A stretch of 64,000 bases of DNA from Phoronis australis (taxonomy: Eukaryota; Animalia; Phoronida). This document shows, piece after piece, positions 22,268 to 63,400 of this stretch. Position numbers and translations under genes: made by a program. Location of the stretch: NCBI GenBank assembly GCA_002633005.1, contig NMRA01000575.1, positions 91,325 to 155,324 of the forward strand, given 5' to 3'. Numbering within the stretch: position 1 is the stretch's first letter; each line of letters opens with the position of its first letter. The notes below the pieces were generated by a model. The model did no database searches. It saw only the letters and a program-made list of their open reading frames with translations, and was not told where the DNA came from.

Positions 22268-22287
22268 CACGCGGATGTGCGTGGTTA

Positions 22288-24005: not shown

Positions 24006-24074
24006 GATGTTTGATTTCTGATTTATTGATTCAGTTACTTTATGTGTAAACTTTGTAGTTTACAAGGGGGAGTT

Positions 24075-24519
24075 TGTTGATGCACTATTTTATTTTGCAG
24101 TGCGTAAGGTTACGTCCTACTACGTGTGTCAATTGGTTAAGCTTCTTATATAACAGACTTTCCGGTACTATCTGGCCTTCTTGACATGAACCGCTATACT
24201 GGTAACGCGTACAACGCTAACGATGTTTTTATGGAGCCTAGAGCCTATATCATTGTAAGATTATACTATTTTTCCGCATATTACCGTAGAATTCACTGGC
24301 TGTTTCTCGTATTGGGTAAGACTGTTTAGCCCATGCTGTATTACGTGGAATATCTTTACTGTATTGTAACGTGAACGCTGTATTTCCCAAGACTTATTAT
24401 TCGTTATATTTGTTTCAGTGAAACCGGCCTTGTCGGACAGTAAGCATAACGTCAACCTTGTTCAGAATAAACGTATCATATCCGACTATCCCGTGTGTTC
24501 AATGCCCATGGCTCCTACA
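24075..24519 (+). repeat. 3' LTR (445 bp)
   Basis: Follows the PPT, has TG...CA ends, contains aataaa, and its 3' part is near-identical to the 5' LTR. Confidence 0.92.
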
Positions 24520-25469
24520 GTATTGTTAATCGATAAAACATCCACGTATGATGATGTCTCAACAAAGAAAATTTCTCATCAACTCAAAACAATGAGTTCC
24601 TCACCTCGATTTCAGAAACGGGCACGCGTGCTTTATTTTTGACAGCTCTCCCATCAGAGCACCAGAGTATCCCAAATTGCCCTGTTATGTGACGTTCGAC
24701 CCTTGATATAAACACAGATGTAAGAACAGAAATTTTAAGCCGTAGACAGTCCAACTTCTTTAGTGCATGCCATACATGTATATCCGCTTGCAATATTAAC
24801 CCATTTATGCCCAACTTTTTCTTTTGTTTCAAAAATTAAGTAAATGACAGATATGACAACTTTATGAAGATAAATAGGAGTTTTGGTGAGATTGTTTCAT
24901 TTTAATTAGTTTTACTAGCATTTTTAATTACGGGCCACAAATGACCCACTGGGATCAAATGGGTGCTCTGGTAACACAAATAAAAAAAACATTTTCACAT
25001 GTTTAACTCTCTTATTTATTGATCAAAACTGATGTTTTTTCACAATTTAAAGAATTTTTAGTCATCAAAGTGAAAAAAATGTCCATTAACAGTGTTCATG
25101 GTGATACATGCATGTGAAAGTACCTTTCACAGCTAAAAATTCATCACAATTTTGACCGTTTGTCCTCTAATAAGACTTGAAAAGAGACAAACAAAAAAGG
25201 ATTGTACTACAAACTATCAATGTGATGAAAATACACAATGTAACTAGTCACGCATCAACAATTGTCCACAACTGTCCACAGCTTATCGACGAATGTGAAA
25301 CTGTTCAAAGCAACGATCATGCAGCGTGATGTTACACTTAGAACAGAACCTTTTGGTTTTCAAACCACAAACAGCACATCTTCGACGGGTTTCACGAGTG
25401 TTTATAAAATGGTTCATGCCATCATATCGAATGTCGTCTACAATCTGACGAGGGAGTGGTGTGGCACGN

Positions 25470-36400: not shown

Positions 36401-39400
36401 AAAGAAACTAGTTACCTAAAGAAATCAGCTATAGAGCTGCTCTTTCAGCGGTGGATTCATCTAAAATGCATGGCTACTTCAGAAGTGTCGTCGGAAGCGC
36501 GTGCACAATTGATCTCCGGGGTTTTGCCGATGAGTCACAAAGACTCGAAACGCGTTGATTTTTGATTGTCATAACAGCAATTCACAATGCCAAAAATATA
36601 TTTTCAGAGTGAACCCCCCCTCAATTTTTCCAAGTTGGTTTACTCAGGGTTTACACACGCTGGCGGTGCCGTTTTTTGTTTTGCTGGAGACGTTTTTGTT
36701 TTGCTGGAGATGTTTTTGTTTGTTTTTTTTTTTAATTTTTGGGTCCTGGCCCGAGGGGGGGTTTAAGCCCCCTGTACCCCCCGTAGATCCGCCACTGCAA
36801 CTTGTTGCTATGTAACTTCATTGTGAAACCTTTTGCCCTAATGTCTGGAACTCGTTTGGAAGTTGAAGACATTCGTATCAATGAACATAAGAATCAGAGT
36901 AGCTGCTTCTCTACATACAGTCAGTTTCGGTGGCTCCTGGTTTGAAGTACCTTCAACCGCTGGATACCGCTTAAGTGAAGCTGGTTCAGAAAATCACGAA
37001 CCACTAAATCCACTAAATACATAGGCGGATTTAGGGGGGCGAGGGCCCGGGCCTTCCCCCCCCCCCCTTTGTATGCCGCAAGCAAAATGAAACATCAATA
37101 GCGCCTGGCGTGACTTAACATTGAGTTCACTAACTATAGTAACTAGGACCGGTAGCGGAGAATAGGGGAGGACTCCTCCCCCAGATTGCGGTGGAACGGA
37201 ATCGCGTTCTTGTTTTATTTGTTTTCTCCACCGGTAGATTTTCCGAAGAGAATGTTCACATTCCCGGCTCCCGCAACTTTCGGGCCGCCTGTCCACTATA
37301 CAATTGCCCAATTCCCCGAGGCAACATTTCGGCCCCCCTTATGGTATCCTAGATCCGCCATTGATAATGAATAATTCAATTCTAGGAATGCAGTGCACCC
37401 CTGGATATTATCGAGTAGTGACGTAACATCGCCTCTGTGGGTACTCACTACTGCAACCCGTTCAATGAAGACATTATGTATTTTAATCACTCATGTAGTT
37501 CCTATTTGCAGATATGATAAGGCTTGGAACTGCAAGAAATTTGTGTCGGAGCGAAAGTTTGGTCAGTAACCGAATTTGGCTATTTCATAAATCTGAAGTC
37601 CTTTCATATGAATGTTATGTCTTTATTGTTGCTAGATTAATATATCGTTCATGTAATCCGTAAATGAAGCATGAATAATGAGTATTCTTTTAAACTTACC
37701 ATTATGCTACTAGTAGCGTTCTATAATAGTTTGCACCTGTCGTTCATTGATATTTTGTACAATATACCCGGATGTCTAATCAGTGGTTGCAATATATTTC
37801 AGAACCACTTTACCGTCTCAGTACGCTTTCTTCAATGGGATCTGGAACTGTCCGCGTGTACGGCGGAATTAACGTTGACCTGACTCATGACGTCATATCC
37901 GCCAGTGTGTATGACACTACAACATCTTCACCACCAACGGAAGTACTCTCCAGCGATGCTGTAGAATTTAAAGAGTATCGCATACACACTGGTGTCAATG
38001 TGTTCACGACTACTGGAAACAAAAAAAACTTGTATTCCAAAATCGTGAATATTAATTACGGTAACTACTCAGACTTAGCAAAACTGATCTTTCCAATGAT
38101 CACTTTCCGAGCTTTAGAATTATGCACCCGAGCTGTTAGATACTTCCATTTTTTACTTTTAGCCACCAACATAAAGGTCTATGTCGCTTTTCTGCTATCA
38201 TGCCTTTGGGAACACCGTCTTATTCGAGCAGATATTATTTAAACCTATTTGATGCGAGCTAATTGAATCTCATGCGATTCGATTTTTGGAAAGGGCAAGC
38301 CTGCACCTTTTCCATTTACAACACAAGGCAAAACCTTCTTGTACATCAATATGCTACTTTTTTAAGCTGTCGCCTCTTACTTACTGCATATCATTGTGTT
38401 TTTCGATCAAGAACAAACAGCTGCTACTGTGGTTGATGTCACTATACCAGTTGGTTGTTCCTCGAGGGAAATTGTTGAACAGATTACACAAATATTTTAT
38501 TTTTTTTGACAAATTTAGGGGAATCGACATCAATTTGACATGATTTATCGTTTACTTGAGTTAAACTTCTCTTTTATGTGTTTTGGCTGTTGCTACTACA
38601 AACGTACAAAACTGTGAGGTTTCACCGATCAAGCGTTACATGCGCGTGTATGCAATGGCTTCTGTGGCAAAATGGAAAATTTACATGGTTTTCTGGAAAG
38701 TCACTTGTAGATAAATTCATCATTAGAATCCTTTAAAAGCGATTAATTTTGTTGTAAGGTATGAGATTTAGGTTTTACGGTTTTATTTATCTTTCCTGGT
38801 TAACATATTCCTTAAGCTGGAGTATGTAATTGTTTCTGGGTTTTGAATACTTCTTGCTTCGGCTCTTACCTATTGTCTTCAATGTATAAGTTCATGTCGC
38901 GCGCTACTATGAAAAGCCAAATAAACAAAAATCGCAGCAAAGTCAACGTCTTTTCAAATTACATATAAACAGTCTGATACTTGGAAAAATCCCATTCGAT
39001 CAAGCAACTGGTGTTTTACGGTTTTTGGCAAACTGTGACGAGCCAAATATTTTTACCAACGTTACAGTCTCCAGTTGCTTTTATGCTCTCCAATCCCTGT
39101 GGTCAGCGAAGTCATTAATGAGTTCTTGGGGCTACTATTTCCAATTAGGTAAAATCACACTCTCTGGGGCTGATCAGTCGTCAACACTTAGACTTGTAAA
39201 TTCTTCATCGTTGAACTGGACTGCTGACGCTGGGAAGGCCATTGACGACAACAAGTCTACAGACTTTATAAACGGAAGGTCGTGCTCTCATACTTTGAAG
39301 AGAAACAACCTGCAAAATCCGTGGTTGAGGGTTGCGCTAAGTAGAATGCACACTGTTCACGGCATTGAGGTGACGAGCAGAAATGGTTCACGTGAGTCTC

Positions 39401-42400
39401 TGTGATTGTTATTCTGTTGTTTCGTTACACCCAAACTAGAAGCAACATCTATTACATGAACACTTGCTCATATACTGGGTGTACCAAAATTTTCTCAAAC
39501 GTGAGGCAGTACTCTTCAGTGGAACTTAAACTAGTCTATTAGCTCATTACTGGGAGTAGATATGAACTTCATTGTTGAATTGACTGCAGTCGCATAATAG
39601 AAAATCCCTTGATTACGCAGCGGTTCTTGAATTCCCCGTATTTACTCACGACACTGCGACATCCGCCAAGGGCCTTGTTTTCGCGCCATTGGAGTTTCAC
39701 ATGTTATTTGTTGGTGCATTGTTCGTCTAAATTAGTTGTATTCGACTTTTTAATAGTAGCCAACTTTGCTGCGGGATGCAACTCCGACTGCAGAATGTTG
39801 CATAAATTTGAAAAGTATCCGAGGATTCGATATTTTCCTTCTTGGTTCCTGGTATCAGCTCGATATTTTTGAAACGAGCCCAAAGTAACAACGCATTTTA
39901 ATATCGCCTAGACAAAAGAGACAGGATTGCCCTATTGGACTCTCATCTACTTATATGCTGCATGCAAGGATGGATGCTGTTAAGTACTTCTTTAACGAAT
40001 CCACTACATGTATTGTGGTTTGCCGATATTTTTCTAATTTCGATAAAGAACTCAAATGTCAATGTCTTTAAAACGTAAGCAAATGCATTGCATGAGGGGT
40101 AGACTGGGAGGAATCATGGGCGTCGTCAATGTAGGTACTAATTGCACGAATTCCAAGATATTACATTTTCAAGTACTCATTTGGGAGAATGTTAAATAGC
40201 AAATACATATTCCCTATCAAGTAAATTATGACTTGTGGTGTTTGCTCAGTAATTCCGTTCACCACGGTTTGAATGATAACTGCGCTTAATGTCGCCGTGT
40301 ATCCAATCTTTAGGTGATTGCAAGAACACACAACAAGGAAAAGACTACATGGGAACGGTCAGCAAATCTAACGGTGGTAGCATATGCAAAAAGTGGAACG
40401 ACTCAAGGTGGCCTCATCTAAATGTGCTAGAAAATTATTGTCGGAATCCCGATGGCGAGCCAGGAGGACCGTGGTGTTTCCTCCGATCTGGCCATTGGGG
40501 ATATTGTGATGTGAGCCTGTGTTCAGGTATGGAATTGATTTGCTGCTGGTTAGTAGGGTGTCATCACGGGCTCAACTTTGTCACGTTTCTCATTTCCCTT
40601 GATCTCAGTTTAGAACTCTAGCCATGGTACGCCATCGCCTGCACGTTATCTATTTACATGTATTCTATTAGAGCTTGCGACACCGAGGTCAGCCGCGAGA
40701 GTTGGCTATGTGAATTTTAGGCAACCTGCTTGACTGAGTTTTGATCGAGTGTTGTCGTTATCAAATCAAGCCTAATTTCATTAATTTATTTTCCTTTTGT
40801 CATTTTTGTCCAACAAGTGTAGCTCTTGGGGTAAGGAACTACACAACCAGAGCTTTTTCGGCAAAATTCGCTAGCAAAACCTGAAAATTACACTTGGTCA
40901 TTTGTTTTTATACGCACCGACCTGTGGCCCAGGTTGGATGACCAAAATGGTCTGGCATCTGATATCTTTTCAGCTCGACAAACTACAAGCCACGAGTTCT
41001 ACAACAAGAAATATTGGGAGTTAAAATCTTGTTACAGTTAGATAAGAAGTGACATTTGGCTTCTGAGTGTTTGTAAAAAAGACCGAAAAGCGAATGCCAG
41101 CAAATTTCATGCATGAGCACAACGTCAGCAACGCAAGACGGAATTTGGCATTCCATGGATAGAGCGCTATGATTCAAGCGGCAACATGACGGCTGCGTTA
41201 TGTTTTATACTCCTGTATTGGACAGACTATATTTATGTAATCTTCCACTAAAAACAGCAACACAATTAAGAGCAATGCTGGAAGGAGCACCTTTTAATGG
41301 ACAACTTATTATAAGTTATACTATTTTGCTAAAAACCTTGTGCATTTGAAATCCTTTTGCCAGACAATGTAATTTTCATCCTAGTTAAAGATGTATTTGC
41401 ATGCTTATAACTTATGCTAATGTATAGTGGGACATCAATGACAATGATATTTGAACACCATCAACGCTAATCAAAGTGCAAATATATTCACGGACAACTT
41501 GTCAATGTTAAAACAAATAATTCTGAAAATAAGTGACCTTTGCACTAAAGACGTACCTTGGAGGCTCACATAGCCTGCATCATGCAGTGTTATTTCACAA
41601 TACCACGTCACGGCACTTACTGGATACGGTTGACTTATTTACAGCGCAGCATTTTTGACACACTATTCATTCTTTAAGAGAGTTTGCAATTTTCAACCTA
41701 CTTCATATTTACATAGTCGCTATATGTTGTATTTCTAACTATTTTGACCGAGCAATCAGATAGATGAGGAATTAGCGTGCAAGTTCCACTTCAAAGGAAG
41801 GTGGCATGAAATAACCTGTCTGACATAGTAACGTCTTGCTGCTCAAAGGTGACAATTTCAAAGACTTTACAACAGAATAAATGGATTTATTTTTTAATCA
41901 TCCATTTCCGGATATTCAAAAAACCAAACAGTAGGAACACATGGACACGCATCAGTAAATATCGTCCATATACAGTGAGTTGGCTTACATGCACCCACGA
42001 ACCACTATCCACCCAACTAGATTAACAGGCATAGGTAATTTATTTTCGAAAAATATATTACAAAGTCACTTAAAATATGAGATGGCATCACCAGAAACAA
42101 AAACGCAATTGTATAAACCTAGGTCTCACAGAGTCCCTGAGAGATTTCCAAGTCCGGGTCTCCAATTCAAGTGACACACCACCAGCGACCTCTACTGACG
42201 TTCTGTGTAAGCATTACACGGGCACCATCAGTGACTCCACCACTGCATACATAGACTGTGATCGTCCAGTCACTGGGAGATACCTGTACATCATCAAGAA
42301 CGGCAACAGCAAATCAGAAACTCTGTCTTTGTGTGAAGTGGAGGTGTGGGGGAAACCAGCTAATGCAGGTACTGAAGTGGATAGAGTTTTTTTAATATAC

Positions 42401-45400
42401 AGAGTTCAATCGAGCTCTGCCACAATTTACCAAATTAAACATCTTCACATGACTGCGTAGTCGAACCTTCATCGCAATAATATGCTGTTTGTTTGGTCAA
42501 AGATTCATCGCAGTTTAATTTGTACCAATATTTTTTTCATTTTGTAGCCTCAAGCACGCTTACTACAAGAGTAAGCGTGGGTGATGGAGTGACGCTAACA
42601 TTCGAGGGGATAGAGTCATCCGGTATCAAATGGCAGAAAGACGGCGCTGCGTTTTATAAAAGCGGCGACATAGATGGATGGAATGACAAGCTGACTAACA
42701 CAATTGACCCCGTAGAAGTGGGACATGGCGGAGTGTACACTATACACAGATCAACTGGAAACGTTCTAGGCATCATCCGCCTGGTCGTCAGAGGTTAGTA
42801 GGCCTAAGAGATATTCTTTTCGGCCTGGTTTTGTTAAATATTAAATGTGTGCCTGGCTTACGCGGACACGATGTAACAATGTCTGCTTTATTTTGTCGAT
42901 GGCTGGGTTGCAAAAAGCGCTATTCATAATTCGCAAATCGTCATTTCATTCCAAGCCCTGTAATTTCTTCTCACCTGAATCAGGTTAAAGTTGATAGCAA
43001 TAGGCTTCCGTGTTTTGAACTGAAAATTAGTTTCTTTACCGGAACAAGGGTTCGCACACGTAGGTGCTGAAAGCATGTTATAACCGGGCATAACTTGGCA
43101 ACTGAAAGAAACTAAACTGGGCAAGTACGCGTTCTGAGTGAGCTATAGGTCATTGGCGTTAGACACTACGGGTATATCGCAGGCGTTTTCAGGATAGTCC
43201 ACGTGGCAGAACTTGCTGATGGTATCCTGGTACTATAATATGCACATCTACCCATCATACAGTGGTTAAGCTTGTGTATTTATTACACAAAACATACGGA
43301 GTCGTCTGTGCAATGCATTTTTCCAATACACGGAGTGTACGGAGTGCATCATTGAAAGGCGCACAGCTCATGAGCGCTCCCAGGGGCGAGTTGTTGGGGC
43401 TAGGGCCCTTGCATTTGGCGAAGTTAAAACAAAAACAAGGCAAAAGTCCACTAAATGCGCAGGAACAGCCAAAATTTGGCGAACGAACAAAAGTCATGGC
43501 TCTGAACGTACCCCGTGAAGAATCTTAGTGAAATGTGCATATTCTAAAAAAATCGAGCCTCCCATTCTTAAGGTTGGGTGCTCGCATGCAGGTGTTGACA
43601 GATTACGTCAGGTCTGGCACTTTTTGGCAAATAACAACGATTACGTAATTTTTTGATATTACATGTGCATATGCAAATCACAAAGTAGGGCAAACTAGAA
43701 ATCTAAACGCCTTACACTTTATCGCCTGCAAAACACTAAAACAACCAAACCCGCGCCAACCAAACGGAAGGACATGCAAACAACTTCTTCGGCGGCGAAT
43801 AACATATCCATGTCCATTCCAACGGAGACGAACCCAAACTCAAGAAACACGGTGAGACTATCTGTGCTGTCTCAAGGACAAACCTGTACTCACGCGCTGT
43901 TAACTAAAACGTATTTCAACGTTTTGTGGAGTAGGCCTATATTTCAAACGAGTATACAACAAAAAGGGAATAAAAATGTGAAACTAAGTACATTCATGTT
44001 AACGTACCATCTTTCTAAAGTTGGGCCATTGGTAGCCGCTCCGTGACAAAGATAGCGCGCTCACAATGCGCTATTTCAGATCACGTTCTCTCGCCACTTT
44101 CTGTTTTAATGACTTCAGCCAGACCGGACTCGCGTGTAGGGCACATTTGATTATGGAAAATTCACTCAGCGACGTAGTAAAATTGTAGAATATGCGAAAA
44201 GTGCAAATTAAAATACTTCTATTGCCATAGGTCGTGGGTCATGGGTCGAGGGAGTTGTAGGTCGAAGGGGCTCGTGGGGTGTAGGGGGAGAGGAGGCTTT
44301 AGAACAATTCTTCCGTGTAAAAGTTATAACGATATGCATATTACGAAAAATCTTCCTGAAAACTTGTTTTTGTGGAAAACATATACGGGACACATTCCTG
44401 TAATCGAAAACTAGCATTTAAAAACCATTTCAATACAAAACATTAAGCAGTTATAAAAAGTCAGAAGAATAACTGGGATACGACAAGTACGTTTGGAAAC
44501 TCTGACTGTGGTTGCGGGACCTAGTGATAGATTTGTGTCGTTGCAGTATGCCCAAGTGGTAAATACGGCGTTGATTGCTCTGAGAAATGTCCACACTGTG
44601 AGAATGGAGGTATTTGTCACGACATCACAGGGGAGTGCATCTGTCCACCTGGGTTTATGGGGCACAGTTGTTCTACAGGTGAGAACTTAATTTAGCTGTT
44701 GTTTGAGTTTATCCTACCAAAACATCGGTCGATCCATTTAAGTACTTAGTTAAAGAACGACTCATGCCAGATGATGTTGTATTGTAGTAGCAAGGTATTG
44801 TTTAACTTGCGTGATCCATGCGACGGGCGCATGGGACACTAACATTGTTTTCTTTTGTTGCTTCTTTGTTGGATATACAGTAACCATACAGGTCGTATGG
44901 ATGTCGTATCTTGGGCGCACATATGCCAGGTACCGATAAATACTTGTCAATATATTTATTATAAGAAAGAAAAACAGTGATAAATGGATACGCCAATTTA
45001 TCGACGTTCATCCAACGAGCTTGCGACCTATTTCTTGTGGAGAAGCAGGATTTTCTAGATATTATTCCCTTAAATCAAACTTTTTGCTACTCTGTGAAGT
45101 AATTCCAAACTGATTTTAATCATTTTAACATGGAGGCAGTTATTTATCACGAGAGATTTGCTCATAGTTTCTGAACTTGCCATTTACATAGATACTGCTA
45201 AGACAGACCTAAGCATTTTAAAATGAAATACTCAACATTTCCCACAACGAATCTCATACAAAATTGTCACGTTCACGACTGGTATTTCATGGCGCACTTT
45301 TAGGAGGAAAATGGCTCACTTTGAAATGAAATAAACTGTTGCATCACCGACATATTCCATATACATGTACTATTAGTAAAGCTTAGTGGGCAATTTAATG

Positions 45401-48400
45401 GCTATGAATGTAAAAAATGAGCTACGTGTACTAGCTCAATCACTGTCAACCATAGATACAGTTGTACTCAGATTTGACAGGACCAAGTCACCAATGAATA
45501 CAGGCCAAGTCGATTGAACGACGCCATTGCCTGGAACTTCTTTTTAGTTAGTTCACAGACTTTGTTGTTTCAAAGCTAAACTCTAAAACCATCACGTTGA
45601 ATGTTTAACAGCACCAAAGTTGACAAAAGCAAGGACCAAGCGACAATTGACTTTGCAATACTGAACTGTACATTATTTGCATACTTGAACTGTAGTTATT
45701 GGTGGCCAGGTGAATATCAAAATTACTAAAGCATTTACAAATGGATAAGGACATATAGTTACGCAACAAGCGTGCCACTTGTCATGAAACATCTGGCCCT
45801 AATTGTTACCAATACGTTTAGATGGCGATTTTCGCCGAGTACTTCAATCGACATCAGTTAGTGTTATTATCAATTGCAAGCAGAAGCTGTTGTCAACAAT
45901 ATTCTCCCAAATGTCGAGAAATGTTCGTTATGATAGCACGTGCTTGCACAAGTCCCAATATATCCATGCCCTCGTCTTTTGTTGGCTTACCATCTGAAAA
46001 TTGTCTGCCCAAAGGTTGTGGAGGTAATCGTTTTGGGAGTGATTGCCTATCCAATTGCTCCGAAGTGGACAGTGAGGACGGATGTCAAGGGAAATATGTG
46101 TGCACGATAGATCCATACGGGTGTTCCTGTGTTACTGGATTTAAAGGAATGAATTGCAGTGAAGGTATTCTTTTTCAAATACCATTACGATATATTTCTG
46201 TGCAAGCCAACATACATGTATGTGACTGTTACTAAATTTGATAGTTATGGAATGACTGGGTATTTTACATTCGCCTCTTTATGGTCACGATAATAACAAG
46301 TGTTTTTAATTGCTGGTTATTTATGCCTAGTTACCACATACAGGTGCCACTTCCGTTATTTCAGTCGGACGGTACCGGTTACATAGAGACACTTAAATCT
46401 CGAGATGTTTAGCACAATTCTAGCCTCGTTTTCGTTCAGTGGAAATTTCTCGCTTTGTTGTTGGTATTGAGTGCATTAACTGTTTTCCTCCTTCCAATAC
46501 CAGTGAAGTTTTGCTGTTGTGCTGCGGTCTGCAAAAAGTTGCATGGATCAACCTGAAAAGTATCCATGGATTCATTCATAAAACATGCTGAAAGTGGAAT
46601 GGATGAAATAATATCCCACCAGACATTAATCCGCGTATCGACCGAGACCACAGGTGGAGAATGATACGCAGAATAATGTCGTATGCCAATTGACGTAATT
46701 TTAATTTATCCCATACACTTAAGTTTCTTTTTTCTGACGTCATTTATATACTTCCTCCAGACTGTTCACGTGGCGGATCACAACATTTAGCGTATGTACG
46801 TGCGCGTAGTGTCACAGTTTTACAGTAGTAAAAACAGTTTTAAATGAAACGAACCATTCCATGAGAATATCAAAAGATATCAAAAAATCACTGTAGGCGT
46901 CATCATCTAGTTTCAGATTCAACTTTGTGTATGTGATCATGGTGTGGCTCTGATACAAAAATCATCAATTTTGCACTTATTTGCCCCTTAGGTTTTACCC
47001 ATAGACCCTCAAATGTTTGCGAAGAAAATGACACATAACCATCTACTAGGGAGATGGCATTATCCTCCCGTTTGCGGATGTATTTGAGGAATTTTGTTCC
47101 ACCCAGTGGCCATTTTTACTGTTTTCGAGTCTGCCCCTCTATCAAACAAACCATCCATAGAATGATTGTGAAAATTGTCATATTTGTTCTTAGTGTGTAG
47201 AGAACGGTTGACGATAACCTTCCTACGACTTTGACTACTTTGGCGCCTCCTATTGGCACATTTGTTTTTTGTAGCGCTCATGGCTGTTTCTACTAAACCC
47301 ATTGCGGGATCTTTATTACATTTAGCAAGCGTATTTATATGAAGTTGACAGCGGACGACGACGACTTTAAGACAGATCCAACAAACACTGTGCCCTCTAG
47401 TGGCAATTTCATTTTTTCCGTTTTTTCCCTGTTACTCCGAAGTTCCTTGATGGATTTTATGAAATTTGGTGAACAGCTCACTGTTACAGAGACGGCGTTG
47501 TTTTTGGATGGTTTGACATATTTTACGCCATTTAAGGGCCATTTTTATTGATTCCTGGCCTGTTTTTGGCGTCCGCCCCTCTGCCAATCGAATCACATCA
47601 TTTTGAAAATATTAGCATATATGTTCTTAGTGGGAAGAGTACGGTTAATCATAATTTTCCAACGACATAGACTACTCTGGCAGTTTTGTCTTTTTGCGCC
47701 CATAGCTGTATCTCCTAAACCCACTGCAGGATCTTGATTAATTTTAGTAAGTGTATTTATATGAAGTTAGCAACGGTCGACGATGACTTTCCAATGAATC
47801 TGTGCCCCCTGGTGGCGATTTCATTTTTTTGTTTTCCTCTTTTACTTCTAAGTTCCTTAATGTATTTTTACTGGAATTGGTTAAAAGCTTTCTATTAAAG
47901 AAACAATGACATGTTCCCGTTTTGGGATGGATTCGACGTATTTTGCGGTTTTTTGAAGTGTTGTGTGGAAATGCATCATACACTAAACCTAACATACCTT
48001 CAAAAAACTGGTTTGGAGTCCGCCGCATGAACGGAATTTACGTATTGTAAAACTGGTAAGTCACAACAACACCCAATTGTTTAAATACTGGTTTGGAAAG
48101 CTGGTAATTTGGATATTACTGAAAGGGTTATGTTTTCAATCGTAAATATCCGTACCTGTCATTTTTCTGAAATTGCACAAATTCCATTGGCGCACTGCCA
48201 CCATGCTCGGCCGCCTTTGTGTAGTAAAAGAAGCATTGCGTGACACTTTGTATGTCCAATAACACGATACTTCTGCTCGTATCCACCGTCCTCTTTTCAC
48301 TTGTGATATCGAAGATTTTTGATAAATTTCATTGTGCTAATAGTTTGAGAGGACATTGACAGGGACTTGTGCAGGAGGTCTGAAACTGGACCAGCATGCA

Positions 48401-51400
48401 CTGCAGGCAGTGTGTGGGATTCTTAGTCCATTACGGTGTTCAAAAACTGACCAAGCAAGAAGGAATGGGCACCCCTAATAAAAATAAAACCTGCTTCTCT
48501 GAAGTATGAGATGGTAATGGGGGTTGTATTATTAACTCATCAGTACATTAAAAGTGACTTTTTGAGTTCTGTAATCTTGTAATAGATTTATCATTTTTGC
48601 ACCAGCAAAACTGAAATCCGCGAAGAAAAAATCTCTCATACAGCTTCCCATGATCTCCTTCGTCACTGATGAAGCAAAACGAACGATATTTTGTTCTATT
48701 TGGCATCTTGGTCGATACATAATTGCAAAATCGAGTAGCGCCTCCTAGAGTCTTTTAATCACACTGACAGTCACAGATTGGCAGAAAAGTGTTTGAGTTA
48801 TGTAAAAAAACTGACTGCACGAAAACTATGAGAGACAAGATTTTTTATTCTTGCGTTGGGCTGAACAAAGACAGCAGTAACAGACGGAAGTTAACTCATG
48901 TTCCAAATAATTCTGATATACATGTAGATTTGGGAGAGCGATAAAAATGTGTAAAAATGGCCATAATAATAGGCAGTGAAAATGACATTTTTGTAGGCTA
49001 AAATGGGAGGACTTAAAAAATCAATAAATCCATCCGATCTAGTTTTTCTTGTATGTTATTTTTTTCTTTTTTCTACTATATAGTTATTTTTTCAATAGCG
49101 TGAAGCGATGATGTGTTGTTGAGGACAAAAGTCGCCTACTTCCCAGTACTATTACATGTATTTGCTATTTTTCAGAAAAAGCACAAAGTGGTCGTAAAAA
49201 GGGTTAAAAAACTCAGAAACTATTAAAAAATCAGGCTCAGGTTTCTTTTGACAAGGCCAGCTGATGTGCTAAGTTTCAAAAAAATTGGTGATTTTGCATA
49301 TATAGCCAACTGTCTGGTTCTTATATGGAATTGCTCTTAATCAAGAAGGTGGAACTTATTAAATTGAGTGGTTAAGTGATCACAATTCACTTTGGACAAC
49401 ACGGCGACTTCTCTGAACAGAAAGGCATGTTCAACGGGCCACATTGTCTTCGGTAAAGATTTACATGTAGCTATAATACATATACAAAGTCTGATACTAA
49501 TAAGAAGTTTTGTACAGTTTCCCGGTGCTGTTATGAAACTTTTATTTCTTTCAACCTGAAGTGCCCCTTCAATTCACCTTGCGTTCTGCTAAATTCTGTG
49601 GAAATTGTTCTGAAATCGTTTTTTGTTTGAAAGTCAACTTCTGTTAAAGGCCTGATTATGTGTCAAAACAGAATACATATTATTCTAATTTCTATGCACA
49701 AAATGCGTTTTTAATTCACGTTTCGTAACTAATTATTTTCCACTTCAAGGTATACCAAAGCGACCTTGAGTTGACATTGACCCACCTAGGAAGCGGTCGC
49801 TAAAATAAATTGACGTTTCCTGTTGTTTAGTCTTCAACACCAAAACACATGTTTATGTTAGTAAGAATGTATGTGTGTATGTATGTACCTATGTATGTAT
49901 GTATGTATGTATGTATGTGTGTATGTATGCATGTATATATGTATGTATGCATGTATGTATGTAAGTATGTATATCTATCACTAAATGAGTGTGTATGTGT
50001 TTTTGCACATTTGTGTATGCGCGTGTGCATGCGTGTGTGTGTGTGTCTGTGTGTGAGTTAGAGAGAATTCTTGTGTGTTAAATATATACATCCATGCATG
50101 CATTTTTGGAAGGCGGTATGCAATCCACAGATATCCACGGCGAAGGAGTACACAATCGAAGCTGATGGGAGTGATTCGGACTGTGATACAAAACCGGATG
50201 ACTTGTCTTTGACGTTTTAGATTGGCGGAGCAAAAGCAGGCTTGCGTATCACAAGGGGTATAGGCTGGTTAATTATCACATACTACATAGATTTTATTGC
50301 TTTCGTTGAAAAGTTATTGAGATATAACGTGTTCACCAAAGTGTGTTATTGTCAATCTCCTTTTTTATTTTAGAATGTCAAGATGGTTATTACGGAGCAG
50401 ATTGTCAGCAAAAATGCGGACATTGTAACAACAGCGCCATATGTAATCCGTATACTGGTCACTGTCGGGATGCGTGTTCTCCTGGGTACATGACTTTCCC
50501 GTATTGTCAGACAGGTTTGTAAACAGTTGGTGACTACCTCATCACCGCAATGAATCGTTCTTGATTGTGTAGTATACTAAAAATGCTCAATTGTGGCTTA
50601 CGTTGGAAAATACTTTCTCAGAAATGTATTTGTGTTAAACTTTCAGCACATTTCGGTTATTGCGTCGTACCAAAAACTGTTAAGGGTTGCTTTTACAATG
50701 TGTCTTTTTGCATAAGGGCTAAAGTGTATCAAAACAGAACCTATATAAATATTTTTGCGAAATAACTCAAACGTTGCATGAATTTTAAACGAAATGATAA
50801 ATTGGAACTCTTTAACAGTGCTTTTCCTATTTCAACTAAACGAAATTAAAATTTGTATTTAAAACTGTTATTTTTTACGAATGTAGATTTCATTTTATTC
50901 CATACGCGTTGAATCTGTAGAGGGAAATACGGACACGTAATAATGCTTTCCGTGTTCGCCTCCCGCTCTAATTCAACAGTGACCTCTGACATGGAAAGTT
51001 CAAAAAGTAGGTCAATGTTGACTCGACGTCGTTAGCCGGTTCGATCACCTAACTTTCGGAAAATAATTTAAAGTGACACAACTATAGCAGTGTAGTTAAC
51101 GCTCAACATACAATCAGGTCTCAATCGTAACAGTTGGAACAGGACTGTTAATTATATGACAGTTGTGTCTCAGTTTTCATTTGCTAAATAGTTTATCGTC
51201 TGCAACTCTGGCGCCGATTCCGAGGTAACCATAATATCAAATATTGTTGTTATTTAACTATTTTCAGGAGATGTTACAAGTTCAATGAAAAGTTACCCTT
51301 GTTTTCATCTTCGTTATCTCTTTTCAAGTAATAGATCGTCACAATTAAAACTGTTTTTTTTACTAGGGAAAACTTGTAGCCTAACGCGCAAGTAATTACA

Positions 51401-54400
51401 TATACGATGCGATCCGCCACGTGAACAGTGTGAGTGAAGTATTTAAAAAATCTGCGGAAAAATGAAAGAAGTTTAGGAACTCGAAGCGTATCGGATAAAT
51501 ACATTATGCTTCAGTCTCGGTACAGCGTACTAGAAGTTTTATCTTTTCCTTGAAAGCTCAAAATTTGAATTCAATGAAATGCACATCCACTAAATACGTC
51601 ATAAAACTTACATCAACATGTACACCTAACGAATGTACGGGATACATGCAAAATCTGTGGGTCAGCCGATATTCACCTTGCCAGTTACAGCCCCTAAGTG
51701 ACAAACAAGCGAGCAAATTTCATTTTCTTGCGTCATTCTTCGAGATTGAAAAAAAAACAGTGTACTATCAACTGGAAGCAGATGCTTTTGACAATTTTAT
51801 TAAAAGCACGATTTTTCATACCATATAATTATTACAATAGAACCAGCATGTGTTTTCAGAAATCCATTGATGAACGTACATGTATACACTCATGGGACAT
51901 CCCTCCACCACCACATTCGCGCACGCAGCCTTCAACATGGGGCGGCTCGAATTCTTGACGTTGTGGACCTTATGGACTAAAAAGAAAAAAAAACGGGGGC
52001 ACCAGTGTGAGTTGCGCGTTTGTGCTTATTTAGTGAACTTTTGTCACATTTTCTCGGACTTTTTGGTTTCTCAGAGGCGGACGTTTTTATCCACTTCGCT
52101 TGTGCGAGCCACCGAGCCCCACCCCCTGGGTGCGTGTATGCTTCATCACAAAGATACTAAAATAAACAGTAGTAGCCCATCTGGCATTAAACTTTATAAA
52201 TTCACAGTATTCGACATTGTAGTATTTACGAGTTCTGCTTTCAGACGTACAATATACGGAATACGTTGTCTTAATCTCCGACAACAGGTGTAATTTTACG
52301 ATTAAAACATTGCTGAAAGTTATTAGGACAATGCCCCAACAATTGCTTTCGCATTACAGGTATATCCAAGTTCCTATTCACTCCCTGCCATGCGTTCACT
52401 AGTAAGACTGATCTCAGGGCAGTATTAGGAGACACCTTTGTGCAATGCTTAAAGGAGAATGCCACCCGATACCATTAGTCCTTTTTACGGCCTTAATCGG
52501 TCTATATCCACATCGCCTCTTAGACGGTCAATCTCACCTTCCTGAGAGGTGTCGCGTTAACCTGCGAGGAAGGTGAGATGCGACGCAGCTACGTCAGTGG
52601 TTCGTCTGCAGAGTGAATGCCGCTATATTGCGGTGCATCGGCTCTCGCTTGTCCGAACTATGAAGCTGCGAAGAAAGCGGTTATGTCGTTTTTTTCGACT
52701 TCCTCGAGAGCCCGAAATGCTTAGGAAGTGGCTCGCGGTAGTGGAGAATGAAAGGTATACTGTTAATAGCAAAAATGAGGCCGTGAAACAACTTCGTGTC
52801 TGTGGTCGGCATTTCTTCGACAGTGATTTCTCTGACGAGTTCCGGCTTACCAAAGAACTATCCATACGTTCCGTTGCCTATGCATGTTCACGGTGCCTCT
52901 CTAGTATTTCTTGATCAGTGTATTCCGGTTCGAACTGATAGTCTGTGAAACCTAACGATCCGACCCGTGAAGTCTTCGTCGGACGAGCTCTTGACTAGTC
53001 GGGATTGGTGCCGGGCGAGTTGCCATGTAGACGTTTATTATTCTGCGTTCTGTTTCAAAATGAATTATCTTCATCTTAAAATGATCCTAACCAATGCTTA
53101 TATGAAACTGAAACAAAGTCTGTTTCATCAGATACAATGTGTAATGCCTTGGAGTTCTCGGGAGTGCAAATGTTTTGAGAAGCCAGCATTGAATAAACCA
53201 CTGCGTTAGGATACCGGCTTTTGATGTCGGCATTGAAAGTTAATTGACTGTGCACCGAGGCCGTGTGAGCGTATGCTAATTCACTGTTTGCTGACAGTAA
53301 GCTGTTGTGAAACAATTACTCAGTTTTATATGCTATTGTCACATGTTAGGGGAATCTTTATTTAGAAATAGAAATACATCATTCAAATCATTGTTACTCA
53401 CGGTACAACCTTTGCCCTGACGGTCTGTGGAAGGGGAAACCGAATTTGCAGCCCCCGACAAATAAATAGGTTTTCAGTTTTGTTGCTAATTTACATAAAC
53501 AATTGCGTGCACAGTATTTCTTTGGCTCACTATTATAGTCTTTTCGTGACTGGAGGTTTAGTTTCCAACTAAATCTGTTTTTTTATCCGTGCCAGTTCCG
53601 GCGGCCGCGACGGTCCTGATCGGGTTCCGAGCCACTGGCCGGGATAACAAGCGTTTTGTGTGTCAAGTATAAATAACACAGATCTAGGTTCTCCTGTCTG
53701 TATTTCACGGAAGAATACTTCAAATTTATCACCGAACAGACCCCAAACTCCTGCTACGGTATTACCCTTGGTAAAATGGCCTGTCGAACTTTGTAGGCTA
53801 CGGTGTGTTCAAATACCAGTACATGTAAATCCCTAACAGCGAAATAAAACAACACGTTTTTATAAGAACTCGGTGTATTTTTAAGGGTTTTACATCGAAG
53901 TTTGATGATTTGTTGTTGTTAAACGACTCAAGCGATAAGCTGACACCAGTGAACTGCTGAACAGACTGCGTGTGAAACCGATGACGTCATTGGATAATTT
54001 CAACACCTCCGACTGCCGTCAGGTGTCAGGTAACGGAACCGAACGCGCCGTTATCCAGTAGAACTACTCTATCTAAATTGATACAAAATAGGTTGCTTTT
54101 GGGTGGCATTTTCCTTTAATTGTCTACGAGTGGGACTACGAACCTGGGCCTCACAGAAGGGAGCTCTGATGAAGACGCAGCGTCGCTGGTGAGAGCTGGT
54201 GCCAAAATGTGAACAATATTCAGAAGTTCTGATGATTACTCAACATTTCAGGTTTGCAGTATCATCCCTCTGCATCAGTACATTCTTCTACTTTTATAGA
54301 AATTGCCAGACTCAAAGACCCACCAATAGTCGTTTCAAGAACAAGAACAACTGTATCCGTTCGTTGGACAGCCTGGCTGAGTGGAACAGATCATGGCGTG

Positions 54401-57400
54401 GGGCCGGTTGAAAAATACGTTATAGAGTACAAACAAGATGGTGGTGCGGTGTGGACCTCCAAAGAAGTCAATAATGTGGCAGATCAACTTACGTTCACTC
54501 ACGATATTTCCAACACTGACGTGAGCCATAGGTACCTAGTGAAAATAAGGATAATGGTTGCAGGAGGTCTTCTTGGGAACTCCAGTCCGGAAGTGGAAGC
54601 TTGTGGAGGTACAGTAAGCCTGGCCGTTTTTACAAGTACTGGAATTTTAATAACTTATATTTTAAATAGCAAAAACGATTTTGTCACCAGGCATGTCAGT
54701 CCTCTTTAGCCGTTAATTTAGAAGTTGTAATTTGCCCCGTACCTATAGTTCCGCTTGCTGGGTACAGGTACATACAGGATACTATACACTTACGTTACCA
54801 TTACTATGTTTTGAATTTCAGCGCCAGAAACTTCAGAGCCAAGTCTATCAAACACAGATGTTAACACAATCGACATAAGCTGGCCAGTAAGATTTCATTG
54901 TTTCCAAACTTTAAATAGAATGTTAAACATTGGGTTTGTAAAGTGATCTGTTGAATTCCAGACATCGTTGTACGAGACTTTATTTTTTCTTAATTCCTAT
55001 CGTTATCGAGTATATTCAAATTTTGTTAAGAACTGTGGTGGCTGTTGGTAATACCTTAAACCAGACATGTGTTCCTTGACGGCTACGCAATACTTCGCGA
55101 GATATTCCTATATATGGTGTTTCAAGAAAAGCAAATGTTCAAATAAGTTCACCGGCTTTGCGAGAGCCTTGCGTCTGGGGAACTCGTCCCTTTATAAAAT
55201 TGACCGATGATTGTGTATTCCAGAAATGGCATCTTTTTGGTCGTAAGTAAACTGATGAAGACATGACTCAGCTGTTAGCTACAGCAAGCTACTACATTGC
55301 GAGAATTGATACGCTGGTTGATTCAAATTTATTCCCTTATTATCTGATCACTACATTCAGATGATTCCATTAATTTCAATGAATTCAAGAGTTTAGCAAT
55401 AATCTGTTTTTGCCTTAATCAATATTAAGAGCAATTGCCCATATTGTGAGACTTACACGCATTATGTGCAGACTCCTGCATTTCCACGTTGTTTTAAAGT
55501 TTTCGAAGACGCCTATATTTTGTTGACGTGTTCAGTTATAACCGCTCATTTGTGCAACATTCAGGAAAGTGGGTGGAGGTGTGGTACACCGGGGTGGTAT
55601 GTAGTGGAGTACATCAACGGAACAGACACCACGTTGAGGAAAACCTCCAACATTACATCGAGGAGTACGTCTCTGTATACGGCATCCTGCACCACCTGGC
55701 GAGTAAGAGTCAGAACATTCAATAAGCACATGACCACAGTGTCCCGCGAAAAGAACATCACCAGCCGAAATAAAGGTACTTATTTGACGTTAATTACTTT
55801 CTCCTGTGTCATGCGCAGGGTGTTAGAATGAAATATATGACATTGTATTTAGTAAGCACTTGTGCATTTCCGATGGCATTTTGTTTGTCGTGAAATTTTC
55901 ATTTTGTATTCGAACACTCGTGCTTATTAGACATGTGTTTCATTTGGGTCGTTAAAGTTTGATCTCGCCCTATTCAGCTGACTAAAATGGAAATAGAATT
56001 GGGACATTTATTCTCATAAAACTTGTCGTGTAGTGTGTCTTACCATAATATAATTCTATTTCTGCATGCAAAAGTACTTCGAAAACATGATCAGATTCAA
56101 GGAAGCAATTGAGAATTTATTGAAATTGACCAACCTTGAAATTGCGAACTCAAAATGGCCCACAAACTCACTGCATATAATTTGAGTTGACACACTGTAA
56201 TAGAAATAGGATCCTGTGAAGGCGAAAAATGTTATGAGATTATTTTAAAAGAGTAAAAAGCCCAATTGGATTACCGCTTTTAATCCGAAAAACTGGGCGA
56301 AGTGGAGCTTAATGGTTATGTAGAACCCAAAAAAGTTCCTAATTTCGGAACAGTATATCTCGGAAATGGCTGATTGGACTCTTATACAACTCCCAGACGT
56401 TACATTTATGCTATAAGCAGGGTTCTCGGTGAATACGATGGGAATTGTTTCTAAAATGTTATATTTTTACATGAGGGCCGATAAAATAAGACTTTACAAA
56501 TAAAAGCTGCATGAAACGAAAACAGAATGATGATCTAGAAAAGTGTGACAGCGTTTGTGACCTGATCGCGTGACCTGGTTAATGACTTATTGTTTAAAAG
56601 TCAGAAAAAACAATTTTTACAGGTTTATCATTTTCAGAAATATACATATAGACTGTGATTAAGCTATATGTAAAACACTTCGATAAAGTTCCGAACGTTA
56701 CTTCCACTTAGTGTCCCACGGACATCATAGTTCGAAGATAAATAAGCATGTGAAGAAGCATGTTGTATAAATCAGTGCGTTGATATTGCATACGTAATCG
56801 TACTACTATTCATAGTCATATCTTTGTGATATAAAATCACCTATAGTTAAAGTCTGAAAAGTCAATATAGAGATTTTTTCCGGCTTAACTATTGGTCACG
56901 GGATATCACGAACACATGGCGTGTACGAAATAATACTTTCCCAAATATCTCTTAAATTTGGTCAACACGCCACCTGTGAAGACGTCACACAACCAAATTA
57001 TTATTACTCCGGGGTACAAATCTTTTGACTTATGTTTATAAGATCCCGGGGTGCGTCACAGGTGGCGTGATGACCAGGGTTAAAAAATTTCGGTATACAT
57101 TACCACGCCAGTTTAAGAATTACATACATGTAGTTACGGAGAATAATTATTAATTTTGCACAAAGGGGTAAAATGAGTTGTGCGTTAGAGTGAACTATCG
57201 TTTTTACGCCAGTACATGTTTTACGAAAGGCAAAATTCACCAAGCCTGTTGAAGTTTTTGAAAAGAGTTCATTGAAATTAATTGCTAGGCTAGCCCCTGT
57301 ATTTTTCGTCAAAATCTGTTCATTTCATGATTTTTTATTTTTTGGAAAAAGTGAACATTAGTATAAGTATAATTTAGAACAGGTTGCTTCAGAATGAAAA

Positions 57401-60400: not shown

Positions 60401-63400
60401 ATAATTATTGAAAACCACTGAAATTCAGACTTGTGTCTTTTAATGGGCTAATTAGCATAATTTATGCATAATTATTGACTTGTATGGTAACTTCCACCAA
60501 ATTACAGTCTCTTTACAACCTTCTGTACAAATTACAACCTTGAAAATTTCTTTTTACCTTTCCCACAGACTATGTTTTTGGATGTGTAAATGTCCTAATT
60601 TGGGGGCTAGCCTTGCCTTAATTCAAGAACTCATTAATCAATCAAGTAATCAATCAATTTTGCATGAATATTGTGAAGTGTAATCCTGTAAACCTGTGGA
60701 AGCGTCTTTCTGCCGAGGCAATTAAAATTAGGCTTACAAAATTAACTCAATTTGTTTTACACCCACTCCTTTCAGTCAGAGGATCGTATGAGAGTCTTGG
60801 TGCCATACATGTAGGTACTACGGTACATAATAGTTATTATGAGAAGAATGTGCTCTTTTCTAGCGCCATCTCAAGTACAGGATCTTGTTATTGAGACTGG
60901 CAACGCCACCAGCACTTCACTAACAGTTGTATGGAAAGAGCCCGAAAGTAATGGGTGTCCCATTGAAGAATATCGGCTCACATATAGACTAGTCAAGGTG
61001 TTTCAGTGCACAGACGAACACAGTGGAGACAAAGTAACGGAAATCCTTCACACGACGAGAAAGGGTATCACGGGTCTCAAACCAAACTCAAAATACATCA
61101 TAAAGGTTGCTGCTAAAACAAAATCCATTGGTGAAGAAAGGTTAATATACGGAAATACCCTTGAACATGGTGAGTGCGATGAAAACGTAAAAGACACGGA
61201 CAAAGTGTAGCTCAATCTCACAATTAAAAATGTTTGCACTGGGTGTGAAATCCTTAATTATTATTTATAAGCGAGGAATAGCTCATTACAAGTGGGATGC
61301 TCACTGCGGGTTTAATTCACTTTGAAAGTGGATTTATTTACTTTAAATAGTCTGCCTACTTTCAGTGCCGCATTTTGGACCTGTATCCCGCAGTCCCGCC
61401 CCTTCTTGACTTACAGCGAAATCGGGTCACCTTGACATACGGATACGGACGTCTTTGAGCGTTGCTTTTCACTGACTTTTTTATCGTGTTATAAAAAGAA
61501 AACTTAGCGTAATACGGCAGTGGGAAACAGACGGGTGGTCTTTGCTAAACCTATCCGTCTATAACAGTTGGGAGTAAAGAGAAACCGGCTCTGGCTTTGC
61601 TCCCAGTCGGACTTTGAACCTTGCAATTGGCTTTGGTATGTTTTTTATCGAGATGTTCCCCTTTTTGCAAGGGGTGCCCTATGTTTCGTTATCGAATGAT
61701 GGAAACTTCGGATATAAGTTTGATGAATGGTGATCTAGCACTTGTGAACTTAATCATTTAAAAAATGAAGGAAAACTGGCATTTTACATCGTCTCGCCTG
61801 AAACTTACTTATCTGGAACGCTCATCCCTTCATGCAGTGCACGTCGTCAGGGTGAACATCTCTTATTAAAATTTATCTGTTTCTCCGTCATTTTGAGTAA
61901 AAGTCAGTCGTAGTTACCCCGCTGTTTTTTTTAATATCCAATATACAACACCTATCCTATGACAAATGTAACTTTCTGTAATTTTCCAATGGTGAAGCGC
62001 GTGTTGACGCAGCTCTGTGTACACTGACTTAATTGTAAGGATAATAAAAATTGCTATGATAGTAATAGTAACAGTAGCAATAATCATTCTGTGAGTCACA
62101 AAAGTATTAACAAGATACTCTACAGCGTGAGATTATTTTTCACTGGTACAACTTGTAGAGATGCCACGGATGACTGCAGCAAATAAAAATCGTTAAGTTT
62201 TGACACAAAACGCAATCATTTGTACAGCTCCAATACACAAATAAAAGCATGTGCATTGTTTCTATGCTTCTTGGAAACGATTGATTTTTTCAGTTTTGAA
62301 CACATTACGTAAAGTACATGTACGTGTTATTTGAATGTCAATAATGCCAATAATATCTGCGCTTTATACGAGGGAGTTTGACGTAAATGAGTTACAAAGA
62401 ACACTTACTTGCCAGTAAAATCTCTTTTGGATATTCATATTTCAGATGATAATATTTGTATGTAGGCGTTATCACGTACCGACCAAATTTGAAACGATGT
62501 ATACCTCGATTGAATGGCTGACTCTAATGCAATCTTCATTTAAAAATGTCTTCAGCGCCATCAGGCAATGTTTCCGTAACTATCCTCACCAAGGGCACTC
62601 GGTCAGTTTCAATCACCGTCTCAAACCTGAATTGTCAAGACAGAAATGGAGTTATAACTCACTACGAATACATTATTACTAACGACGGAACCACGTGCTT
62701 CACTGCCTCAATCAATACGAACGGGTCGTTTACCGAAATTCAATCGGATATAACCGGCCTGGTTCCCGGCAACTCATTCACTGTACGGGTTCGTGCTCAT
62801 ACTTCTGCTGGTTCAGGGCCTTGGAGTGATGGCGCCAGATTCACTACGTTAGAGGAGGGTGAGTTACCAAGAAAGTTGATAGACTTTTAGGAAAGCGTTT
62901 TGTGCTTGTCTACTCTTAAAATATTAGTTTCATAACTTTTTCATACAGGTACCAACACGAAAAAACGAAAGATGAGGCATAGTGTTTGGCGTGAACTAAT
63001 GTTACAATTTACCCTAGACTTCTTTACTGCAGCAGAGAAGCTTATACTTGTCCAATTCTGCTTGTAGATTCGCAAGTGCTACACTGACACTTGGCGTACA
63101 TGTAGTGCGGTAATAATTGATAACATGAAACAATACGAATAGTTGATGCGAATGTAATAATAATGTTTAGTTTTGCTGCAAACCCGCCTTGTGACATTTA
63201 AATGATACTACGTTCTATTCTATTGCTACTCATCACACCAATAATAAATACAGCTCCACCATCACCGAAGAATCTAAGTGTGGTAGATATGAGCCCAACA
63301 TTCGTCATTATTGGATGGATGCCACCGTGTCCCCCTAACGGCGTTATAAGGGAATATCAGCTAAATCACCAAAGTCTGAACGTCACTGATGACAAGAACA

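Follow-up and report, generated by a model that had tools for sequence, protein, structure and literature searches.

The window, a stretch of 64,000 nucleotides of Phoronis australis DNA, carries on its forward strand a gene whose exons encode an F-type lectin (FTP) domain in two halves, a kringle lying between these halves, an Ig-like domain, EGF domains and FN3 domains (Table 1). The gene continues beyond the window end, after the last FN3 exon.

Table 1. Exons of the gene in the window, with the evidence for each.
Feature	Position	Strand	Evidence and remarks
Upstream exon, 85 aa, probably beta-rich	37803..38060	+	258 nt, phase 1-1; donor junction 38060>39149 in RNA, acceptor predicted
FTP/F-type lectin N-half exon	39149..39391	+	243 nt; profile and PDB matches; RNA junctions on both sides
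Kringle exon, in CDR4 loop of FTP	40314..40526	+	213 nt; PF00051, PDB kringles, RNA
FTP/F-type lectin C-half exon	42123..42368	+	246 nt, 3 Cys, LCEVEV; RNA junction 42368>42548
Ig-like exon	42548..42793	+	weak Pfam Ig_3 match; RNA junctions
EGF exon 1	44547..44678	+	Pfam EGF_2 above cut-off; RNA junctions on both sides
EGF exon 2	46015..46164	+	RNA acceptor, predicted donor; tblastn to P0165, P0166, P0169
EGF exon 3 (predicted)	50374..50514	+	tblastn to P0165, P0169; splice context; no Pfam match; outside RNA test
FN3 exon (bounds predicted)	54300..54608	+	Pfam fn3 E 3.7e-5
FN3 exon (predicted)	60864..61169	+	Pfam fn3 E 2.8e-11
FN3 exon (predicted)	62556..62858	+	Pfam fn3 E 2.1e-8
FN3 exon (predicted, partial domain)	63254..63471	+	Pfam fn3 E 7.1e-9

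The N-half and kringle exons (39149-39391 and 40314-40526) are open in frame between AG and GT ends and have phase 1-1. All three exons of the unit are phase-1, and the kringle exon, with 213 nt and phase 1-1, is both frame-preserving and symmetric. These bounds and the start of the last exon at 42123 are the same as in an earlier note on this DNA, but the end at 42308 given there had to be moved: there is no GT at 42308, the donor at 42368 is confirmed in RNA, and the LCEVEV motif sits past 42308 within the longer exon.

On the 91 positions of Pfam PF22633 the N-half covers 1-41 and the C-half 46-89, and each half by itself scores under the curated cut-off, which is why standard annotation overlooks the split domain. 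With our own FTP HMM of 155 positions, used beside Pfam, the halves correspond to positions 24-79 and 84-152, and the two-exon form joined in silico gave 117 bits as a single FTP domain. F-lectins were the top PDB matches for both halves (FBP32, 3cqo: E 1.3e-11 for the N-half and 2.2e-5 for the C-half), and the sequence homology that defines F-type lectins extends over the domain of about 140 residues. The kringle scored 52.6 bits with PF00051 (cut-off 34.3). Scanning all six frames of the window gave just two FTP matches, the halves themselves (E 8e-18 and 1e-12, the next at 0.6), and a single kringle (E 1.5e-17, the next at 0.1); the introns of the unit yielded no further FTP half and no overlooked exon. 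The region contains no N gaps, the window having none after position 34252; both absences had already been noted.

RNA evidence came from four runs of the species, with 18-19% of each raw-read run X1-X3 sampled, and a junction needed at least 3 reads in a run to enter the junction listing. Both junctions that include the kringle were read. The first, 39391>40314, was covered by 1 read in X1 and 8 reads in X2, plus 2 variant reads, and the second, 40526>42123, by 6 + 2 reads, one contig of a diverged copy and 2 X1 reads with one letter changed. The kringle exon has stranded RNA depth as well as these two junctions, and two or more diverged copies that are expressed retain it; the single kringle difference in the read table is synonymous. 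The RNA junctions follow the genomic order, and misassembly is therefore ruled out. The two halves tile the FTP profile with the kringle in the sugar-binding loop (CDR4), as the earlier note had proposed. So the nested architecture is real and expressed.

The earlier note further suggested a splice-controlled specificity switch, in which regulated omission of the kringle cassette yields a contiguous lectin of other specificity. Without the kringle the reading frame would be preserved, and this form scores as a complete single FTP; a symmetric exon of this kind permits loss via exon skipping according to PMC3927616, and P0017 directly joins two halves which are separated by an insert in P0016 (see below). 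Run X3 had a depth of about 0.9 on both FTP exons and zero on the kringle, which is about two reads per exon and too few to interpret. However, none of the four runs listed the skipping junction 39391>42123, where each inclusion junction had about 10 reads and the listing minimum was 3 reads. Nearly every exon modelled in the gene is phase 1-1, so that symmetry of phase does not point to skipping in this case. The skipped form also remains without the Asp, the Cys-Cys pair and the second Arg of the fucose site; the canonical site would thus not be rebuilt, and the specificity switch is unsupported. We consider regulated skipping quite improbable, and inclusion of the kringle would be the normal form, as judged at low RNA depth.

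F-type lectins bind fucose with the motif H-x24/26-R-x-D-x4-R/K, as given in PMC5712786. In the Phoronis domain His and the first Arg are kept (H-x29-R), while Asp and the second Arg are absent, and the vicinal Cys82-Cys83 pair is missing at its position; the motif alignment agrees here with the earlier reading of the letters. The vicinal disulfide is missing also in some working F-lectins. Among 427 FTP domains in our set the complete motif was present in 139, and at least one of H, R, D/E and R/K was missing in 288, so the loss, common in insert-free FTP domains, need not stem from the kringle. Fucose binding has presumably been lost in the Phoronis protein.

The barrel itself seems to have been maintained. 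In eel agglutinin the two halves are held together by cross-half staples (PMC5712786), and most of these are retained here. The Cys residues for the structural disulfides Cys50-Cys146 and Cys108-Cys124 are all present, one in the N-half and three in the C-half, and so are the Ca ligands equivalent to Asp38, Ser49, Cys146 and Glu147. The Ca motif h2-D-G-x reads D-D-N here, with Asp for a Gly that is 93% conserved in the set, and the Asp of a cross-half salt bridge (eel Asp64) is Ala. Because the cross-half Cys and the Ca ligands are kept, the two halves likely fold as one Ca- and disulfide-stabilised barrel.

It is very improbable, in our judgement, that sugar is still bound through His and Arg, or that the halves pair between receptor molecules instead of within one chain. 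His and the first Arg are indeed retained, and a pattern of His and Arg only occurs in 13 of the 427 natural FTP domains. But the Asp is gone, as are one basic residue of three and the vicinal disulfide, which touches the sugar ring, and an N-glycosylation sequon, starting directly after the kept Arg, may block the pocket. For the conserved Cys, pairing inside one chain is the simplest use.

Compared with known F-type lectins (eel agglutinin 1k12 and FBP32 3cqo; PMC5712786), the Phoronis domain has in common the homology, the structural Cys pairs, the Ca ligands, and His with the first Arg. It differs in that CDR4 is interrupted by a kringle of 70 residues and that Asp, Cys-Cys and the second Arg are lost. 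The intra-domain intron of FBP32 has another position, close to Glu123-Cys124 (eel numbering).

The inserted kringle has the six-Cys pattern (Cys at 2, 24, 42, 54, 64 and 69). Its first and last Cys are 1-2 residues from the exon ends, and in kringles Cys1 and Cys6 form a disulfide; the termini should therefore be close together. Lysine-binding kringles have an acidic pair, two Trp and a cationic Arg or Lys. Here the D-x-E pair and both Trp are kept, and His stands before the second Trp, at the position of plasminogen's Arg, which matched in kringle alignments what had been reported for the D-x-E pair and the His. The middle loop is about 10 residues shorter than in most aligned kringles, and a lysine site of plasminogen type is thus not found. 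The kringle may bind a protein ligand, probably not through the classical lysine site.

The kringle could also be a tolerated passenger, which entered a permissive intron of a lectin whose site was already dead, so that the unit is a spacer and the kringle has no ligand. Degenerate fucose motifs are the majority among the FTP domains of our set, an intron of the same loop exists in other FTP genes, and the short middle loop and the His at the cationic position would suit such a relic. Yet the six Cys, both Trp, D-x-E and the reading frame are all intact, and an exon that persists in two or more diverged copies, each expressed, with its single tabled difference synonymous, does not look like one. 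We regard this explanation as unlikely and prefer a kringle that is in use.

We searched for related proteins with each part of the unit. The N-half query gave no close homologue among 66 candidates. The kringle query gave 14 matches with 36-43% identity; in 4 of these an FTP domain was present, always in tandem and never in a nested arrangement. With the C-half, 325 matches were obtained, of which the best 150 were examined after word and length filters, so absence is not implied. No kringle inside an FTP domain was found in the 164 proteins scanned, including these best 150 of 325, nor was the architecture found in the literature, where the supplements of FTLD surveys might list such proteins. 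Six split-FTP candidates were flagged, of which P0016 and P0106 were kept; P0024 was dropped for a low-complexity insert, P0160 for two cases resembling gene-model read-through, and P0036 as fragmentary.

Both retained gene models predict a whole domain inserted in FTP as in Phoronis, but not a kringle. P0016 carries a whole FTP inside FTP, at the same sugar-binding loop, and P0106 has a beta-trefoil lectin in a later loop and an intact fucose motif. In the structure model of P0016 (pTM 0.59) the insert is predicted to fold as a complete F-lectin (Z about 21) and the outer halves show confident beta-strands; the pairing of these halves is not directly visible in the model. The view that the nested architecture is unseen elsewhere therefore holds for the kringle case, but not for whole-domain nesting in FTP, which recurs.

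For the origin, five metagenome loci were compared. L004 and L005 have intronless FTP, L002 and L003 gave no profile match, and the informative one was L001, an unrelated FTP gene with a phase-1 GT-AG intron directly after RxDCC, in the same loop. In addition, 19 of 22 short C-half-only ORFs start at HMM positions 79-87. Nesting of modules in an enzyme is known from the gelatinases, which have FN2 repeats inside the catalytic domain. Class 1-1 domains, kringles included, typically enter pre-existing phase-1 introns (PMC3927616), and that paper gives as examples the kringle in thrombin and FN2 in MMP2, 'inserted internally'. The Phoronis case is alike in that a symmetric phase-1 module would have entered an existing phase-1 intron, and differs from the cases in that source in that the intron is inside a domain, in its ligand-binding loop. 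With a loop intron of that phase in L001, and with kringles established as class 1-1 modules, the origin would be ordinary: the kringle was likely inserted into a pre-existing phase-1 intron of the sugar-binding loop.

The neighbouring exons point to a receptor. The ectodomain contains Ig, three EGF and FN3 domains, and RNA links the exons as far as EGF exon 2. EGF exon 1 had its best named matches in receptor protein tyrosine phosphatases (PTPs) of the Ig-EGF-FN3 type. The proteins P0165 (Lytechinus variegatus), P0166 (Holothuria leucospilota) and P0169 (Caerostris darwini) share the order Ig, three EGF and FN3 and are similar in sequence, but unlike the Phoronis gene they have neither FTP nor kringle. 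Four Ig segments of these proteins were compared with the Ig-like exon, and for 3 of them it scored above each of 500 shuffles, which indicates homology to the Ig domain that precedes the EGF repeats in invertebrate receptor PTPs. The upstream exon matched nothing in Pfam or Atlas and its fold model was uninformative (pLDDT 35); its likeness to a farnesoate-methyltransferase-like domain or to a first Ig domain did not exceed that of shuffled sequences in any of 4 comparisons.

No PTP domain was matched anywhere in the 64-kb window, and the transmembrane and cytoplasmic parts lie beyond it. In Biomphalaria sudanica, the SudRes1 MEGF RPTPs combine EGF repeats with a galactose-binding-like domain and form paralogue clusters (PMC12297450). 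We liken that pairing to the present gene, and the source nowhere mentions a kringle. The tail of the Phoronis protein may be a tyrosine phosphatase and the family one of variable recognition receptors.

Taken together, we favour, at a probability of roughly 0.6, the following course. Exon shuffling would have brought the kringle exon into an old phase-1 intron of the sugar-binding loop; the two lectin halves would still pair as one Ca- and disulfide-stabilised barrel; and this barrel, giving up fucose binding, would have become a stand which holds the kringle outward as the predicted protein-binding tip of a cell-surface receptor, possibly with a phosphatase tail. Because the sugar-binding residues are partly lost, the lectin likely acts as a stand for the kringle, in line with the scaffold role suggested before. 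The mechanism of origin would be a textbook one; the function we infer from sequence.

More tentatively, and with less confidence than even odds, the intron of the sugar loop could be a recurrent socket, into which whole domains are repeatedly plugged, a kringle in Phoronis and an FTP in P0016, and where the tip is swapped between paralogues and possibly also by splicing. If so, a fucose lectin would have been turned into a display scaffold, like an antibody framework, in invertebrate recognition receptors. The Phoronis gene is an RNA-supported case in which a mobile module replaces the binding loop of a lectin rather than adjoining it. Seen beside the other nested FTP domains, it suggests that split domains are undercounted in surveys of F-type lectins and that this loop naturally accepts insertions. 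It bears on the way recognition becomes diverse in invertebrate receptor families, and on the use of the small F-type barrel as a display scaffold.

An F-type lectin (FTP) domain is divided over two exons, and a complete kringle exon lies between them. The earlier note had proposed this nested order, and profile searches, splice ends and RNA joints now confirm it. Inspection of splice sites and frame gave the same coordinates for the first FTP exon (N-half) and the kringle exon; for the second FTP exon (C-half) the proposed start was kept, and the end was corrected from 42308 to 42368.

Exons of the FTP-kringle-FTP unit and the exon upstream of it (window positions)
Feature	Position	Ends, frame and phase
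Upstream exon	37803-38060	
FTP N-half exon	39149-39391	AG/GT ends, open, phase 1-1
Kringle exon	40314-40526	AG/GT ends, open, phase 1-1
FTP C-half exon	42123-42368	AG/GT ends, open, phase 1-1

Positions 1-41 of Pfam PF22633 (91 positions) were matched by the N-half and 46-89 by the C-half, each half falling below the cut-off when searched alone. With our own FTP HMM (155 positions, from 425 full-length FTP domains among our search matches), the N-half covered 24-79 and the C-half 84-152, and the halves joined in silico scored as a single FTP domain with 117 bits. Among solved structures, the halves came closest to the F-lectins FBP32 and eel agglutinin. The exon between them encodes a kringle with six Cys, which exceeds the Pfam cut-off. 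A six-frame profile scan of the whole window showed no additional FTP half or kringle under E 0.1, which agrees with the earlier statement that no further FTP half was found in either intron. The upstream exon 37803-38060 gave no Pfam match and carries no domain assignment. Directly before it, a weak, non-significant kringle-like match (37499-37660, plus strand, E 0.3) lies in a bin with slight depth in RNA run X1; it could be a chance match or the remnant of an exon.

Four RNA runs labelled as the same species (X1-X3 raw reads, 18-19% of each used; X4 contigs) were aligned to 37400-46300 at 90% identity, and joints with at least 3 reads in a run were listed. Stranded reads cover the exons of the unit, with GT-AG joints at 38060>39149, 39391>40314, 42368>42548, 42793>44547 and 44678>46015. 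The joint from N-half to kringle (39391>40314) had 1 read in X1, 8 in X2 and 2 variant reads. For the joint from kringle to C-half, one diverged copy, whose C-half exon differs in its first 20 letters, accounts for 6 X1 reads, 2 X2 reads and one X4 contig; 2 more X1 reads have one letter changed. Both inclusion joints, named earlier as the check, were seen in RNA, the second one in no listed row with the exact reference letters. Because its reads come from differing sequences, at least two diverged copies, paralogues or distant alleles, are expressed with the kringle before the C-half. RNA depth increases over the 3' part of the C-half exon and over the EGF exons, and many of the reads there depart from the reference; further family members with more diverged 5' exons are suggested. 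Of the 10 codons changed in the C-half exon among the 40 of 300 difference rows listed, 6 were non-synonymous.

It had also been proposed that skipping of the kringle exon could switch sugar specificity. The skipping joint 39391>42123 was absent from the joints listed for the four runs; minor skipping could have escaped notice, because joints under 3 reads per run go unlisted. X3 showed slight depth over both FTP exons and zero over the kringle, from about two reads per exon, too few to interpret. As first described, His and the first Arg of the fucose motif are kept with 29 residues between them (H-x29-R), and Asp, the vicinal Cys pair and the second Arg are all absent on alignment; a glycosylation sequon directly follows the kept Arg. 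Judged from these residues, the domain has likely lost fucose binding whether the kringle is included or not, so the specificity switch is unsupported. Such motif loss is common among FTP domains, all four motif positions being kept in 139 of 427 full domains.

In the kringle, alignment bore out the acidic pair D-x-E and the His in place of the usual cationic residue; both Trp are kept and about 10 loop residues are missing. We take the acidic pair, Trp and cationic position to have the roles of the classical lysine site, and this site appears doubtful here because of the His and the shortened loop.

In eel agglutinin, according to sections of PMC5712786, loop CDR4 on the top face carries Arg79 and Asp81, and the termini exit at the bottom. 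Two disulfides (Cys50-Cys146 and Cys108-Cys124), two salt bridges and a calcium site to which both halves contribute ligands hold the fold together. The N-half has one Cys and the C-half three, at positions matching its structural Cys, and the calcium ligands Asp, Ser, Cys and Glu are kept, whereas one salt-bridge Asp and the calcium-motif Gly are altered. Since matching Cys and calcium ligands are kept across the halves, the simplest reading is that both would form one barrel, with the kringle projecting from the former sugar face. The lectin as scaffold, an idea of the earlier note, is likely in view of these residues and the partly lost fucose motif.

As an analogue we modelled the predicted protein P0016, in which a complete FTP lies between two FTP halves (residues 1664-1948) in the same loop as the kringle site; its outer halves are 75% identical to halves directly joined in predicted protein P0017 (residues 1471-1580). 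In the model the insert adopts a complete F-lectin fold (Z about 21, rmsd about 2). Confident beta-strands make up most of the outer halves (mean pLDDT 83, pTM 0.59). The model fits nesting and does not demonstrate pairing of the outer halves. In P0106, another predicted protein, an FTP (residues 221-505) encloses a ricin-type beta-trefoil lectin domain (321-442), in a later loop than the kringle site and with the fucose motif intact. Nesting inside FTP is therefore not unique to the kringle case. A kringle inside FTP was found in 0 of 164 proteins scanned, and several had both in tandem. Literature searches gave nothing relevant on FTP or F-type lectin paired with kringle (the main database survey lies outside this comparison); the portions consulted of two F-type lectin reviews (PMC5712786, PMC12221842) describe no nested FTP, and in that of PMC12221842 the word kringle has 0 occurrences.

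An unrelated FTP gene (L001:447-570) has a short GT-AG phase-1 intron directly after RxDCC, in the same loop and phase as the Phoronis australis unit and within one or two codons of its position. Short ORFs with only a C-half start at HMM positions 79-87 in 19 of 22 cases, and many are preceded by residues resembling translated intron ends. A phase-1 intron in this loop is therefore likely ancient and present in many FTP genes, but not in all: the fish FBP32 gene is split at another place (parts of PMC5712786 and PMC12221842). Class 1-1 domains including kringles are as a rule inserted into pre-existing phase-1 introns (part of PMC3927616), and PMC7502776 emphasizes that mobile modules fold independently. 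The kringle exon would have entered the loop intron as such a module, and a new mechanism is unnecessary. The sugar-binding loop may be a "recurrent socket" for inserted domains, a reading for which L001 and P0016 give evidence.

Elsewhere in the window, long gag-pol-like frames (18021-20918, 20783-22264, 22210-24002) lie between two similar flanks at 17745-24640 and appear to resemble a BEL/Pao retrotransposon. Two THAP-domain frames (52561-52911, plus; 31598-31870, minus; Pfam E about 2e-8) are probably transposon remnants. A 331-aa frame at 8630-9622 (minus), from a separate gene on the opposite strand, matches ZU5 weakly (E 0.009), and a frame of short tandem peptide repeats (9973-10420, plus) enters an N gap.

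Downstream of the FTP unit the gene continues with exons for one Ig domain, three EGF domains and at least four FN3 domains or parts of them before it exits the window. By eye, 55536-55775 (plus) is a possible additional FN3-like exon with no Pfam fn3 match, and one intron holds an open 586-aa Mutator-like transposase frame (57822-59579, plus; PF20700, E 1.9e-63). Receptor protein tyrosine phosphatases (PTPs) of sea urchin, sea cucumber and spider were 3 of the 6 best named matches of the first EGF exon; they share the Ig-EGF-FN3 order but, unlike this gene, have no FTP or kringle. Compared with four Ig segments from these receptors, the Ig exon scored above every one of 500 shuffles for three of them. 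The six-frame profile scan showed no PTP domain in the window, so the tail may be that of a phosphatase or of a kinase. In snails, receptors that combine EGF repeats with a galactose-binding-like domain and PTP domains occur as clusters of paralogues, and these clusters have been linked to resistance against parasites (part of PMC12297450). This makes a recognition role of the Phoronis australis gene product plausible, by analogy only.
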